This document shows, one piece after another, positions 11,709 to 17,216 of a stretch of 26,643 nucleotides of DNA. Made by a program: the position numbers and the translations under genes. Under the pieces are notes generated by a model. That model saw nothing but the letters and a program-made list of their open reading frames with translations, was not told where the DNA came from and made no database searches. Numbering within the stretch: the stretch's first letter is position 1; the number at the start of each line of letters is the position of its first letter. Origin of the DNA: Oculatellaceae cyanobacterium (GTDB taxonomy: Bacteria; Cyanobacteriota; Vampirovibrionia; Vampirovibrionales; Vampirovibrionaceae); contig DATNQC010000293.1 of assembly GCA_036702885.1 (NCBI GenBank), positions 1 through 26,643 of the forward strand, given 5' to 3'.

Positions 11709-13136
11709 TTAGATGGATAAGCGTCTTCTTGTTTCCAGATATTTGCGGATGAGCGTTTCGTCCAGCTTGTCAGGTGGTGCATCAATAATGGTCGCGTGAT
11801 GAAGGCGTTTGAGTGCGGAAAGCGCCTGCTGCCGTAGGGCGAGCAAATCCAGGGTGACGCCTTTTTGGTAGGCGTCAAATGCATTCGCCGGATGGCTTTG
11901 TGCTTGTCTGAGCAAGTCCGGATCGGATAGGGTCGCAATCAGCAAGGTGTGCTGGGTGGAGACCGATTTAAACGCTTGTATCAGCTGGGTTGAGGTTGAT
12001 GGATCTATGAGTTCTGTCAACAGGATGACGAGTGTTCTTCGCCGGAGTCCGCGAGCGATGAGCGGCAGGATGCGGGCATAATCCGGTTCTACTTGCTGGG
12101 CGGTTGTTTTGCTTAAACTATCCAGCAGTTTGATCCAATGGCTGGATCCTGTGCCAAACGGAACGGAACTCAAAATCCGACTGCCAAAAACGGTTGCTCC
12201 AACCGCATCTTTGCGGTCAATGGCAACCGCGCATAGCGCCAGCGCGGCGTTAAGTGCCTGATCATACCGGCTTAGGCCACCGATGGTGCTGCGCATCTTC
12301 CGCCCGGCATCTAAAAGCACCAGAATCGGCTGTTCCACCTCTAACTCAAACGTGCGAACGACGGGTTGATCGAGCCTGGCCGTTGCTTGCCAGGCCATAT
12401 TCCTGACGTCATCCCCCGGAAAGTAATGGCGAAGTCCCCGGAAACGGGTTCCTTCCGAACCAAGCGTCTGCTTTTGCAGTTCACCGGGTGCGGTTGCTTT
12501 GGAGGCGTTCACCCGCATGCGTTGAATGCGTGCCAAATCCGGAGTGACTGTGATGGTTTCCGGCCGTCCGCCCTGGAGGGTAAGCCACAATAAGCCTAAG
12601 CGGCTGCGGTAGCGCGCATGGATTTTTTCAAACGGGTACTGGCCGCGCTGAGTGGGAAAAAGCTCATAACTGTATAGCGCTTGCCCAAATGGCTGTATAT
12701 CCAACCGATTGGGGAAGACGCTTTGCCATTGTTCACAAAGTAAAACAGGTGGCACGTGGTCAAAAAGCTCAATAGAAATGGGATTATGGCTATTGTTGAG
12801 CACCTGAATCTCGACCAGACTCTTTTTGCCAATGAAGAGCTTGGGTGAAACGGTTCGACGCAGGCTGATTTGCTGTGGCGGTGCGGTGAGCATCAAGCCG
12901 TCAATGAGCAGGAGGGCCATATAAATCGGGGTGTAGGCCAAAGCGAGCCAGCTAAACCAACCCCACCATAACGAAAGTATCCAGAAGGGGATGGGCACAA
13001 GTAGCCAGACAAGTCCGGTAATGCTCGGCTTGGCTCTGCGTTGCCAGGTGAGGAGCGCAATCCCGGCTGCAATGCAGAGCAAGGGGATGGTGCTATCTTG
13101 GAAAAGGGTGAGCAGTGCCGACAGAAATTCGTTCAC
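11709..13136 (-). CDS. DUF58 domain protein (MoxR-associated vWA-like) with N-terminal TM segments
   Basis: GTRFRGLRHYFPGDDVRNMAWQATAR, PVVRTFELE, LVLLDAGRKM, ALNAALAL, RRRTLVILLTEL. Confidence 0.88.
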   Translation of the reverse strand: MNEFLSALLTLFQDSTIPLLCIAAGIALLTWQRRAKPSITGLVWLLVPIPFWILSLWWGWFSWLALAYTPIYMALLLIDGLMLTAPPQQISLRRTVSPKLFIGKKSLVEIQVLNNSHNPISIELFDHVPPVLLCEQWQSVFPNRLDIQPFGQALYSYELFPTQRGQYPFEKIHARYRSRLGLLWLTLQGGRPETITVTPDLARIQRMRVNASKATAPGELQKQTLGSEGTRFRGLRHYFPGDDVRNMAWQATARLDQPVVRTFELEVEQPILVLLDAGRKMRSTIGGLSRYDQALNAALALCAVAIDRKDAVGATVFGSRILSSVPFGTGSSHWIKLLDSLSKTTAQQVEPDYARILPLIARGLRRRTLVILLTELIDPSTSTQLIQAFKSVSTQHTLLIATLSDPDLLRQAQSHPANAFDAYQKGVTLDLLALRQQALSALKRLHHATIIDAPPDKLDETLIRKYLETRRRLSI

Positions 13137-13891
13137 GACAAGCTTTGAAAGTTGGCGCGCCGCAGCGGTGTTTTGGCGACAGGGCGCTTGAGGGGATCCA
13201 TATAAAGCCGCTTTTCGTCATCTTGGTATAGCTTAAAGTGTTCGTTTTCTTTGCCGTGGCAGAGCAGCCAGGCGCTGTAAGCGCCAATCATGGCATCCAG
13301 CACGGAACTGGGGGCCAGATTGGTTGGAATGTCTTTAAGCGCAAGTTTTTGCTTGAGTAATGCCTGCAGCGCGCGGCAACCATGCGGGCTGCGGGAGCGG
13401 AAGGGGGTGTTTAACTGGTAGCGCAGTTTGGCGTGGGGTGCAAAAAAGCTGAAAATCAAAATGCCGCGCTTCTGTACTTCATCATAAAAATCTTTAGCGC
13501 GCTGAGCGTAACGATCAGTTGGCACAGGCTCCGGGATATGGGGGCTTTTTTCCAACAGGCGCAGCGGATGCATCTTGATTTGCTGTTGACGCCACTTACT
13601 GGGAATGTTCAGGCTTTTGGGAATGTCCAGCGCAACCACGATGTTGCTTGCCGGGCCCAAATTATCCAGAAACTTCAGCAGTGCGTCGTCTTCATCCAGC
13701 TTGTCCATGCGTAGGATGTGCTTTTTGCGATCCAGAACGGCAATGCCGGTTTCCAGGGTATCAATCGGCGCCATATCAATTCCCACAAAAAGCCACTTAT
13801 TGGTCAGGCTGGCCTTGGGGGAATCACCCAAATCCTTGATTGTGATTTCATGTTTCAGGTAGATTGATGAAGCGCTCATAGCCATTATCAT
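13133..13891 (-). CDS. DUF429-like RNase H-fold protein
   Basis: FVGIDMAPIDTLETGIAVLD, VVALDIP, VLDAMIGAYSAWL; stop overlaps the DUF58 start (GTGA). Confidence 0.72.
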   Translation of the reverse strand: MIMAMSASSIYLKHEITIKDLGDSPKASLTNKWLFVGIDMAPIDTLETGIAVLDRKKHILRMDKLDEDDALLKFLDNLGPASNIVVALDIPKSLNIPSKWRQQQIKMHPLRLLEKSPHIPEPVPTDRYAQRAKDFYDEVQKRGILIFSFFAPHAKLRYQLNTPFRSRSPHGCRALQALLKQKLALKDIPTNLAPSSVLDAMIGAYSAWLLCHGKENEHFKLYQDDEKRLYMDPLKRPVAKTPLRRANFQSLS

Positions 13892-13928: not shown

Positions 13929-15029
13929 TTGCAAAAAGCCGGTATCGTTGGACTCCCCAATGTTGGCAAGTCTACCCTTTTCAATGCGCTCACTTCCTCT
14001 TACCAGGCGGAAAGCGCCAATTATCCCTTCTGTACGATCGAGCCGAACGTGGGTATTGTCAAGGTGCCGGACCCACGGCTGTGGGTGCTGAAGGATATCG
14101 CCAAAACGCAAACGGTGATTCCGGCGGTTTTCGAGTTTGTGGATATTGCCGGTCTGGTTAGAGGCGCAAGCAAAGGCGAGGGCTTGGGGAACCAGTTCCT
14201 GGCGAATATCCGGGAAGTGGATGCGATTGTCCATGTGGTGCGTTGCTTTGAAGATACAGATGTGGTGCATGTGGATGGCAGTGTCGATCCGCTGCGTGAT
14301 TTGGAAACGATCCATATTGAGCTGTGCATGGCGGATTCTGCCTCCCTGGAAAAGCGGATGGAGCGCTTGACCAAGCAGGTGAAGCAAAAAGATCCGCAAG
14401 CCACTGCTGAATTGGCGCTCTATGAAAAAATCAAGCCAATCGTTGATGAGGCGGGTGTGATTGATCCGACAGCCTTAAGCGATGAAGAACGTAAGTTGCT
14501 CAAGCAATCCCAATTGCTGTGCGCCAAACCCGTTATTTATGCTGCCAACGTGGCGGAAGGCGATTTGGCTGAGCCGGAAAGCAATCCGCATTTTAAACGC
14601 CTTCAGGAATATGCTGCCAACGAGGGGCGGATGGTCGTTCCAATTTCCGCGCAGATTGAAGCGGAATTAACGCAACTGGATGAAGCTGAAAAGGCAGATT
14701 ATTTGGCCAGCCTGGGGGTTAACTCCTCGGGTGTGGATCGCCTGATTCAGGCAGCGTTTCAGACGTTGAGCCTGCAAACTTACTTTACGGCAGGCGAAAA
14801 AGAGGTCCGTGCGTGGCCGTTTGAAAAAGGCATGACAGCGCCCCAATGCGCTGGGATCATTCACTCTGACTTTGAAAAAGGCTTTATTCGGGCCGAAGTG
14901 ACGGCATACGATGACTATGTGGCTGCCGGTGGCGAAAAGGGCGCCAAAGAAAAGGGGCTAACCCGTCTGGAAGGTAAAGACTATCTGATGAAAGATGGGG
15001 ATGTCGTCTACTTCCGGTTTAACGTGTAA
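13929..15029 (+). CDS. ychF: Ribosome-binding ATPase YchF
   Basis: [96 protein letters not shown]. Confidence 0.98.
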
Positions 15030-15054
15030 GACGGGCTGCTCATATCTTAATTAA

Positions 15055-15978
15055 TTAGGATGTGGCCAAGGCAGGCATTCCGATTGGAGCCATGACTGAT
15101 TGTGGAGCCGAAGTCTGCATGCACTGCCTTTGGAATGCCTTTAAGAATTTGGGTAAGCGCTGAAGCTGCGCCCAAAGCCAATCGGGAGTTTGTGCGTCTG
15201 GGTGTTCCTCTGGGTGCGCGATGGCATGTCGGATCTTTGCCAGGTTGCGTAAAGCGCCTTGGGCTCGACTGCTATGGGTATAGGGTTCCATTTGACTTAA
15301 GTCATAGGCGGCTGTTCCCAAAACGACCAGCGTATGGGCGAGCACCGCTCTGGTTTGCTCGAACTCTGGAGCGCTAAACTCTTTTAGATTGCGGAATTCT
15401 CTCTTGAGACGGAGGGCTTCTTGCCCATGTGTTTTTATCAGGGCTGTCAATGCATCGGGTCTTGCTGCGGGCGGAGGTGCTTTAGGAATCTTGATGTTGG
15501 GTCCTGACCACCGTTGGGGTGAGGGCGCATTCAACCAGCGATGCAAAGCAGGGGCAAGACTTTTCGTGAGCTCCCAAATAGTATTTAGATCGACTTGGTC
15601 ATGATCATGGGCAATCCGGTTTCTGATTGCCTTCAAACGTTCAACCGGAAGCCCTGGATGCTGCCGATGGAAGTCGCTCGATAATAGTTGAAATTGGTTT
15701 CCAAGTTGCTCCCAGTGGTGCAAAATGGCGTTGCGCACAAATGGATTATGAAAAAACTGGTCCTTTCCGGAGTTTCTATAGGCTTGAAGCGCGTCTAAAT
15801 GTTCTTGTATTCTCTGCAGCGTGTGTGGATCTTCCGATTTTGGAAGAGCCTTGCTGAATCGATCCCTGCCAAAGTGAACAACCGCACCCGGTGAGTGTGC
15901 GACACGAATTGCCGGTCTGGGGCGGCTACACCACGCTTCAAACGGAGATAAAAATTGAATCCCCATAGAAACCCACAA
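15055..15978 (-). CDS. Protein with two tandem DUF86/HepT-like HEPN domains (start TTG 15978 or ATG 15966)
   Basis: Domain 1 (aa about 50-150): VRNAILHHWEQLG...HPGLPVERLKAIRNRIAHDHDQVDLNTIW. Domain 2 (aa about 178-285): TRAVLAHTLVVLGTAAYDL...LRNLAKIRHAIAH...DWLWAQLQRLP. Pro-rich linker between them. Confidence 0.8.
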   Translation of the reverse strand: MWVSMGIQFLSPFEAWCSRPRPAIRVAHSPGAVVHFGRDRFSKALPKSEDPHTLQRIQEHLDALQAYRNSGKDQFFHNPFVRNAILHHWEQLGNQFQLLSSDFHRQHPGLPVERLKAIRNRIAHDHDQVDLNTIWELTKSLAPALHRWLNAPSPQRWSGPNIKIPKAPPPAARPDALTALIKTHGQEALRLKREFRNLKEFSAPEFEQTRAVLAHTLVVLGTAAYDLSQMEPYTHSSRAQGALRNLAKIRHAIAHPEEHPDAQTPDWLWAQLQRLPKFLKAFQRQCMQTSAPQSVMAPIGMPALATS

Positions 15979-16187
15979 AAATTTTTCACTTCCCTCAGCA
16001 TCAGCATACTGGATGTTATTAAAATGATGTCAATTTATGATCTTTTTGTAACAATGTGTTTGCGCGAAATATTGCCCAAACTATAGCCGCTTTCCTCGAA
16101 ACAGGATTCAGGGTAGGCTAATAACGTAAAGGGTCCAATGATGAGTATGTTGGGAGAGAATGGGTGTGCGCCATAGCTGAAGAAACC

Positions 16188-17216
16188 ATGAAGGCGATCC
16201 AAAAAACGACTCCGGGAACAGGTTTCGAGCTTGTGACAGTGCCAAAGCCGGTTCCCGACCCCAAGGAAGTTTTAATCAAAGTATCGCTGGCGTCTGTTTG
16301 TGGTACGGACTTTCACATCACCAATTGGGATGAATGGAGCGCTAATCGCATCAAACCGCCTTTGGTGTATGGGCATGAATTTTGCGGTGTGGTGGAAGCG
16401 ATTGGGGAGCGGGTGGAAGGCTTTGAGTTGGGAGATTTTGTATCTGCGGAAATGCACTTGCCTTGCGGGCATTGTTTGCAATGCCGGGAAGGGCGCAAAC
16501 ATATCTGCGAAAACGTGAAAATCTTTGGCATCGATTTGCCGGGCTGCTTTGCAGAATATATCGTGATTCCTGCCAAACAATTGATTAAGCTGCCTAGAAG
16601 CATTAAGCCGGAGTATGGGGCGCTGCTGGATTCGCTTGGTAATTCAGTGCACGCCGTCTCTCGTGCGGATGTGGCTGGGAAAACCGTACATGTGGTGGGG
16701 TGCGGTCCGTTGGGTTTGTTTGCTGTTGCTGTGGCAAAAGCAATGGGGGCGCTCAGGATTTTTGCCTCGGATATCTCGTCCTATCGGCTGGATTTGGCGC
16801 AAAAAGCCGGTGCGGATGTGGTGCTGGATGCAGGTAAGATGCAGGCCTCTGATGAAATCAAGGCAGCGACACGGGGCCATGGCGTGGATGTGGTGCTAGA
16901 GATGTCTGGAAGTCCCGTTGCAATTAATGATGCCTTCAAAAGCCTGAAACTGGGCGGCACCGTGGTGATGATGGGTATTCCGAAAGGCAATGTGGAGCTG
17001 GATATCAACAAGGACATCATTTTTAAAGAAGCTACGGTCATTGGGGTGAATGGCCGCCAGATTTTCCAGACCTGGATCCTGATGCTGGATTTGTTGGCTT
17101 CCGGCAAGCTGAATCTGGATTTCATCATTACGCATGAATTGCCGCTTTCCGCATTTGGCGAGGCAATGGAGTTAATCCGACGGGGCGAAAGCGGAAAAAT
17201 TCTGCTGAAACCTTAA
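16188..17216 (+). CDS. tdh: L-threonine 3-dehydrogenase
   Basis: CGTDFH, GHEFCG, structural Zn CGHCLQCREGRKHIC, GCGPLG, LDSLGNSVHA, GRQIFQTW; directly upstream of kbl. Confidence 0.93.
   Translation: MKAIQKTTPGTGFELVTVPKPVPDPKEVLIKVSLASVCGTDFHITNWDEWSANRIKPPLVYGHEFCGVVEAIGERVEGFELGDFVSAEMHLPCGHCLQCREGRKHICENVKIFGIDLPGCFAEYIVIPAKQLIKLPRSIKPEYGALLDSLGNSVHAVSRADVAGKTVHVVGCGPLGLFAVAVAKAMGALRIFASDISSYRLDLAQKAGADVVLDAGKMQASDEIKAATRGHGVDVVLEMSGSPVAINDAFKSLKLGGTVVMMGIPKGNVELDINKDIIFKEATVIGVNGRQIFQTWILMLDLLASGKLNLDFIITHELPLSAFGEAMELIRRGESGKILLKP

Follow-up and report, generated by a model that had tools for sequence, protein, structure and literature searches.

A Vampirovibrionales protein with two HepT-type HEPN domains and two conserved RX4H motifs, a candidate intramolecular pseudo-dimeric RNase

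An uncultured cyanobacterial relative of the order Vampirovibrionales carries a gene that joins two HEPN domains in one polypeptide, each with an intact RX4H motif. Both halves of the protein are HEPN domains of the HepT type. The gene lies in the window analysed here, a stretch of 26,643 nt of DNA. On balance, we favour the view that its product acts in conflict or stress, outside the HepT/MntA pairs, as an intramolecular, pseudo-dimeric HEPN RNase. The two four-helix domains would pack against each other within one chain, mimicking the HepT homodimer, and R119 and H124 of the first domain would join R250 and H255 of the second in a single asymmetric, composite and metal-independent RNase site. 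We infer the intramolecular composite site, the RNase activity and the biological role of the tandem protein from the comparisons and models described below.

Two HepT-type HEPN domains in one chain

The open reading frame extends from position 15055 to position 15978 on the minus strand of the window, with its stop codon at 15055-15057. Two start codons are available: a TTG at 15978, which gives 307 aa and is preceded at a distance of 10 nt by a Shine-Dalgarno-like stretch (GAGGGAAG), and an ATG at 15966, which gives 303 aa and is the one picked by gene callers (protein P0002). Residues are numbered here from the TTG codon at 15978. Contigs from separate studies carry the same DNA with zero differences across the gene, some of them long compost metagenome contigs and, separately, one run labelled 'fungus metagenome'. 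Since the same sequence was recovered in contigs of separate studies, the reading frame is not an assembly artefact. A fusion produced by mis-assembly or by a frameshift is ruled out by the single reading frame present in seven independent sequences and by the identical DNA in independent samples. Several studies also yielded identical DNA for the surrounding segment 13900-17300, in metagenome runs labelled compost, soil, sludge or 'fungus'. Runs labelled 'metatranscriptomic' were rejected as evidence of transcription, because their contigs are 25-73 kb long and behave like DNA.

The protein starts with an N-terminal extension (residues 1-45; 15844-15978, minus strand) that is predicted to be disordered and contains an F-G dipeptide (F36-G37). 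The first HEPN domain, HepT-like according to Pfam, hhalign and AFDB models, covers residues ~52-150 (15529-15825, minus strand) and includes the first RX4H motif, R119-N-R-I-A-H124, at 15624-15607, with invariant Arg and His; it is followed by D125-H126, with no Tyr. A Pro-rich linker (residues 151-173; 15460-15528, minus strand), modelled with no secondary structure at pLDDT 71-79, leads to the second HEPN domain (residues ~174-288; 15115-15459, minus strand), a diverged HepT-like unit recognised by hhalign, by VIA-align and by Pfam on its relatives. The second motif, R250-H-A-I-A-H255, lies at 15231-15214 and is followed by P256-E257, again with no Tyr, and by W267-L-W269; its Arg and His are invariant, as is W267. 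The reading frame and both motif positions agree with those of the preliminary description, which had also pointed out the Pro-rich linker between the two units and the Trp that follows each motif, both found here (W135 and W267/W269).

At least six relatives of the window protein were identified (P0003, P0005, P0034, P0056, P0152 and P0153; 19-47% identity). The 150 best matches of an exhaustive HMMER search contained the two-domain relatives P0003 (49% identity), P0005, P0034 and P0056; P0152 was added through genome searches and P0153 through a protein search. Word-indexed protein searches returned only the window protein itself, P0034, P0152 and the new member P0153, and scans of genome and metagenome contigs with patterns from the window protein or from an alignment yielded no relatives. 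A mixed alignment of 50 proteins was discarded because the tandem proteins collapsed in it.

The N-terminal half scores 47.9 bits with the Pfam model PF01934 (HepT-like), above the gathering cut-off of 23.5 (E 1.3e-12, residues 57-147), and DUF86 models from AFDB match its residues 45-149 with a TM by hit of ~0.8. The C-terminal half (residues 170-307) gave no direct match to the PF01934 HMM and, taken alone, only weak HEPN hints (HEPN_RiboL-PSP, E 0.0026; PADLOC PD-T4-2_B, E 0.0013). A profile check of each half, proposed in the preliminary description, found both to be HepT-like. In hhalign, the N-half profile matched single-domain HepT proteins at 99.8% with the RX4H motifs aligned, and the C-half family profile matched a profile of 30 single-domain HepT proteins at 97% (E 9.4e-11), in an alignment that spans the full length and sets RX4H on RX4H. 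The C-half profile also matched the N-half profile, at 95.7%. The proposal of two HepT/DUF86-type HEPN domains in one chain is thus upheld, by Pfam for the N-terminal half and by hhalign and VIA-align for the C-terminal half. A PDB sequence search with the window protein found nothing, and the NCBIfam HepT_toxin equivalog NF047751 scored 15.1 bits, below its cut-off of 60.

The two halves of the window protein do not match each other in BLASTP (E 12). Four relatives (P0152, P0005, P0034 and P0056) each contain two PF01934 stretches according to Pfam, and the halves of P0152 are still alike, with 40% identity in BLASTP over 47 residues that include the motif (E 2e-6). This similarity points to an internal duplication of a HepT domain as the origin of the architecture; at the level of sequence, the data indicate that a HepT (DUF86) domain was duplicated and fused to give the tandem protein.

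The RX4H motifs and the predicted fold

The bare pattern R-x4-H occurs five times in the window protein. Shuffled versions of the protein contain 1.4 on average, and the probability of at least two occurrences is 0.41. Counting bare RX4H patterns was therefore rejected as evidence, the pattern being common in shuffled sequence; the meaning of the motifs derives from their position in the domain and from their conservation, not from the mere presence of the pattern. In a MAFFT alignment of the seven family members, which is shallow (7 rows, against 9 rows in the alignment used for fold prediction), every member keeps R119, H124, R250 and H255, at 19-47% identity to the window protein. The full set of invariant columns is A84, L92, G93, L99, R119, H124, L177, L217, G221, R250, H255 and W267. 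The earlier claim that both RX4H motifs are intact holds for the whole family, since the Arg and His of each are kept in every member.

HEPN motifs typically have N, H or D after the motif Arg. One of these residues occupies that position in 12 of the 14 motifs of the family, the exception being an Arg in the N-terminal halves of P0152 and P0153. The C-half signature R-x4-H-P-E ... W-L/Q-W occurs in five of the members. The halves have diverged into fixed N-type and C-type sequences (RN..H versus R..HPE..WLW), as would suit an N-C interface of the heterotypic kind.

Without an alignment, AlphaFold2 gave a model of the window protein with pLDDT 61 and pTM 0.38, in which the orientation of the domains was not fixed. 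With nine tandem sequences, the values rose to pLDDT 81 and pTM 0.75; the core (residues 41-289) is mostly above pLDDT 90, and the disordered parts are restricted to the N-terminal 40 residues (pLDDT <50) and the C-terminal tail. The order of helices is the same in both halves, and in each the corresponding long helix (H112-124 and H238-254) carries the RX4H motif at its C-terminal end. Two independently floating domains of ~110 residues could not yield a pTM of 0.75, so one compact unit is predicted; in this model, the packing of the two domains is confident and defined.

Comparison of residues 173-293 with 48,161 PDB chains by VIA-align placed 7ae2_A first (Z 11.4, rmsd 2.6, 114 residues) and 5yep_B second (Z 10.7), although Z values of 10-11 are in the chance range for helical bundles, for which the tool's own note gives a high background. 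Both of these chains are HepT toxins. The preliminary description had named failure of the C-terminal half to model as HEPN as a result that would speak against it; the best PDB matches of this half are HepT toxins. Foldseek searches of the PDB with the whole model, built with or without the alignment, gave no significant match, and searches of the ESM Atlas returned only single-domain HepT clusters. Together, the model and its structural matches indicate that the four-helix HEPN fold is present.

The same models bear on the possibility that the domains pair across chains (N-N', C-C' or N-C') in an active RNase that is a domain-swapped oligomer, which would have either two sites in each dimer or the form of a chain. 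The HepT toxins characterised to date are all homodimers, often in higher oligomers with MntA (PMC7641770, PMC13000451), the 23-residue flexible linker permits either arrangement, and the single-sequence model left the orientation of the domains loose (pTM 0.38). Against this stands the monomer model built with the family alignment, which is compact, and the distinction between N-type and C-type halves, which would be expected under a fixed heterotypic N-C pairing. We consider such a swapped assembly improbable and retain the intramolecular pseudo-dimer as the preferred arrangement.

Comparison with HepT/MntA, Cas13 and other tandem HepT proteins

The closest characterised proteins are the HepT toxins of the type VII HepT/MntA pairs (PDB 5yep, Shewanella SO_3166; 7ae2/7ae8, Aphanizomenon HEPN), which provide the best structural, sequence and profile matches of the tandem protein. 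They share with it the domain family and the four-helix fold, as well as an RX4H motif at the end of the corresponding helix with a conserved Trp after it. However, the HepT toxin is a homodimer with a subunit of ~115-140 aa, whereas the tandem protein contains two domains per chain, and HepT cassettes are mobile, whereas the tandem gene has a fixed housekeeping context.

No MNT gene was found next to the tandem gene or in the syntenic loci L011-L015 and L085, and its own genome (72% complete) contained no match to PF01909 or PF18765. The claim that the gene lacks an MNT partner is therefore supported: its neighbours are ychF and tdh. The Tyr that is AMPylated in the RX4HxY motif is missing from both motifs of the window protein, which read H124-D-H126 and H255-P-E257; within the family, HxY is kept only in the N-terminal halves of the G002-type relatives (HRYY, HQYY). 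Without an MNT gene and without the Tyr for AMPylation, the tandem protein is placed outside the HepT/MntA toxin-antitoxin pairs.

The preliminary description regarded this architecture as unfamiliar among HepT-like toxins and proposed a search for double-DUF86 proteins. This search did reveal relatives with two intact motifs, but the architecture is not unique: the exhaustive search also found the tandem HepT proteins P0004, P0008 and P0031, and the assumption of an unfamiliar architecture has to be given up. Like the window protein, these three contain two PF01934 stretches in one chain (218-250 aa). In contrast to the window family, where both motifs are intact, at least one of their RX4H motifs is degenerate (in the N-terminal half of P0004, in both halves of P0008 and in the C-terminal half of P0031), and they have neither the N-terminal extension nor the RX4HPE...WLW signature. 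As these losses of one or both motifs show, a tandem architecture does not in itself imply two working motifs. The present case is a compact tandem made of HepT domains only, in which both motifs are intact, and it is confined to Vampirovibrionales. Since the HepT domains are ordinary ones and other tandem HepT proteins exist, the finding is moderate and not striking.

Two further loci with HEPN genes were observed. In L084 (2714-3657), a classical MNT gene overlaps by 4 nt the tandem HepT gene encoding P0031, whose second RX4H motif is degenerate, and an ordinary MNT-HepT pair lies 1 kb upstream of these two genes. On contig C459 of genome G000, a second HEPN-like reading frame (L002, 1246-1770; 174 aa) contains an RNSIVH motif and matches PF01934 weakly. 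Its neighbours resemble, by eye, a restriction-modification specificity subunit and an ArdC-type antirestriction protein; if this resemblance holds, the context is a mobile or defence one, unlike that of the tandem HEPN gene.

Cas13 proteins, which are ~3-4 times larger than the tandem HEPN protein, are guided by a crRNA and contain large insertions, whereas the domains of the tandem protein are HepT-type and not Cas13-type. No direct repeats were found within 14900-16300, Rfam gave no match in the window, and a scan of nine neighbouring genes revealed no cas gene. With no repeats, no Rfam match and no cas genes, the tandem protein is not Cas13-like beyond its two HEPN domains. These two domains per polypeptide are nevertheless a shared feature, and in Cas13 they form the composite site in cis (10.1101/760058). 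More generally, HEPN RNase sites are composite, with two juxtaposed RX4H motifs brought together in trans or, in Cas13, in cis, and according to a 2019 preprint, Cas13 was until then the only observed case of assembly in cis (10.1101/760058). The 2013 survey of HEPN proteins listed DUF86 fusions with MNT, REase and methylase domains and no tandem form (PMC3710099); a 2026 review attributes to that survey AbiTii homologues with two HEPN domains (PMC13064643).

Nearly all characterised HEPN RNases bring their RX4H pair together by dimerising, and their regulation often acts through that assembly. If assembled in cis, the tandem protein would be a simple system for studying asymmetric HEPN active sites, and a function would be added to the little-known Vampirovibrionales. 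With both halves and all four catalytic residues kept in ~300 aa and no antitoxin, one has to ask how the cell would tolerate a toxin-type RNase that is already assembled. Indeed, an always-assembled HEPN RNase without an antitoxin should be toxic, and this counts against the intramolecular RNase that we prefer. A bolder proposal, which we put forward only tentatively, is that the protein is a minimal, monomeric HEPN RNase with a core of ~250 residues, whose site is formed in cis by two diverged HepT domains and which works without an antitoxin; it would be an independent, small parallel to the duplication in Cas13 and would have a new control mechanism, for example through the FG extension.

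Chromosomal slot, distribution and control

The genes surrounding the tandem gene are housekeeping genes. In every family member whose DNA or gene map was readable, it occupies the same chromosomal slot, convergent with ychF and divergent from tdh-kbl, and the P0056 locus is collinear with the window (GGDEF-HD, kbl, tdh, tandem HEPN, ychF, a 250-aa gene, DUF58, hpf and enolase). Across the taxonomic family, the gap between ychF and tdh (15030-16163 in the window; loci L030-L053) is a variable slot. Only some lineages hold the tandem HEPN gene there; in several other members of the family the gap is empty (100-165 nt), and in others it contains unrelated small genes, among them a ~150-aa membrane-like reading frame on the other strand in one genus and other small reading frames elsewhere.

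Among 25 species representatives of the family, only G000 and G002, the latter an uncultured Vampirovibrionales bacterium that carries P0152, possess the gene; 49 genomes from the order and 401 sampled from the class included no further carriers. The protein diverges rapidly. Lineages whose ychF shares 88-93% identity with that of the window have tandem proteins that share 25-48% with the window protein and 27-49% with one another. The dN values are 0.48-1.06 for the tandem gene and 0.04-0.07 for ychF, a non-synonymous rate 10-20 times that of ychF; as dS is saturated in the flanking genes, we claim only fast evolution and not positive selection. The tandem HEPN gene is thus a lineage-restricted, fast-evolving chromosomal gene of some Vampirovibrionales. 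Its patchy presence, its fast evolution and the absence of a partner are more in keeping with a role in conflict or stress (defence, dormancy or possibly an effector function) than with a housekeeping role.

The toxicity expected of an assembled RNase would not arise if the protein were a non-toxic, specific RNA-processing or RNA-binding protein, that is, a domesticated HepT pair with a narrow substrate, or a pseudo-enzyme, neither of which would need an antitoxin. Such a role would agree with the fixed position among ychF, tdh-kbl, hpf and enolase, where the gene is inherited in place, with a context free of mobile elements and defence islands, and with the loss of the Tyr used for toxin control in HepT/MntA. 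However, searches of 25 species representatives of the family failed to recover the gene from 23, whose slot is either vacant or occupied by other genes, and a core processing enzyme would not be expected to show a dN 10-20 times that of ychF. The pseudo-enzyme version is further opposed by the invariance of all four catalytic residues in the seven members. We therefore judge this non-toxic role unlikely and keep to an RNase acting in conflict or stress.

The N-terminal extension deserves attention in this respect. An F-G dipeptide is found in the extension of the six members that have the N-terminus (HFGRD, YFGGR, SFGQD, LFGKA, RFGQA and RFGQS); F36 and G37 are outside the invariant columns because MAFFT places the FG of the six in differing columns. 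It is speculative, but the FG-bearing extension is a candidate regulatory or targeting element. Vampirovibrio, the genus that gives its name to the order, is a predator of algae. An effector RNase secreted or injected into prey or competitors, which would need no immunity gene if exported or inactive until delivered, would accommodate the uncultured Vampirovibrionales origin of the syntenic relative G002, the failure to find an antitoxin gene, the very fast evolution relative to the neighbours and the conserved, disordered FG-bearing extension as a possible targeting signal, but residues 1-45 show no hydrophobic signal-peptide core by eye, secretion-system genes are absent nearby and the gene is present in only two of the 25 species representatives searched, which makes it a distinctly poor candidate. 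An intramolecular composite RNase, outside the HepT/MntA pairs, remains our preferred reading.

The region upstream of the gene is shared with tdh. This divergent intergenic region (15979-16163) contains short conserved blocks, located in the window at 15968-16054 and 16100-16125: TTGTTACAAAAAGATCATAAA and TTTTAAnAACATCC, with TTAGCCTACCCTGAA nearer tdh. These non-coding blocks, probably promoter or operator elements that serve both divergent genes, are kept between the window and relatives even though the adjoining coding sequence has diverged beyond the reach of blastn. A scan of the intergenic region with the sigma-70 consensus gave no match, and the region has no stable RNA fold (z -0.2). 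An upstream RNA antitoxin like that of AbiF was rejected on the basis of this fold value and of the lack of repeats and of an Rfam match. AbiF itself is a homodimer (PMC12737573).

Other features of the window are mentioned for completeness. Between 4500 and 7000, the GC content is 0.39, compared with ~0.51 elsewhere in the window. The gene for a 252-aa protein with no Pfam match (13133-13891, minus strand) adjoins ychF in all but one of the 25 loci examined in the family, and the protein is 38-79% identical in GTDB representatives and 87.5% identical in L011. Next to it, a second fast-evolving gene encodes a DUF58/VWA-like protein (11709-13136, minus strand), which is 57% identical in L011, as compared with 80-93% for its neighbours.
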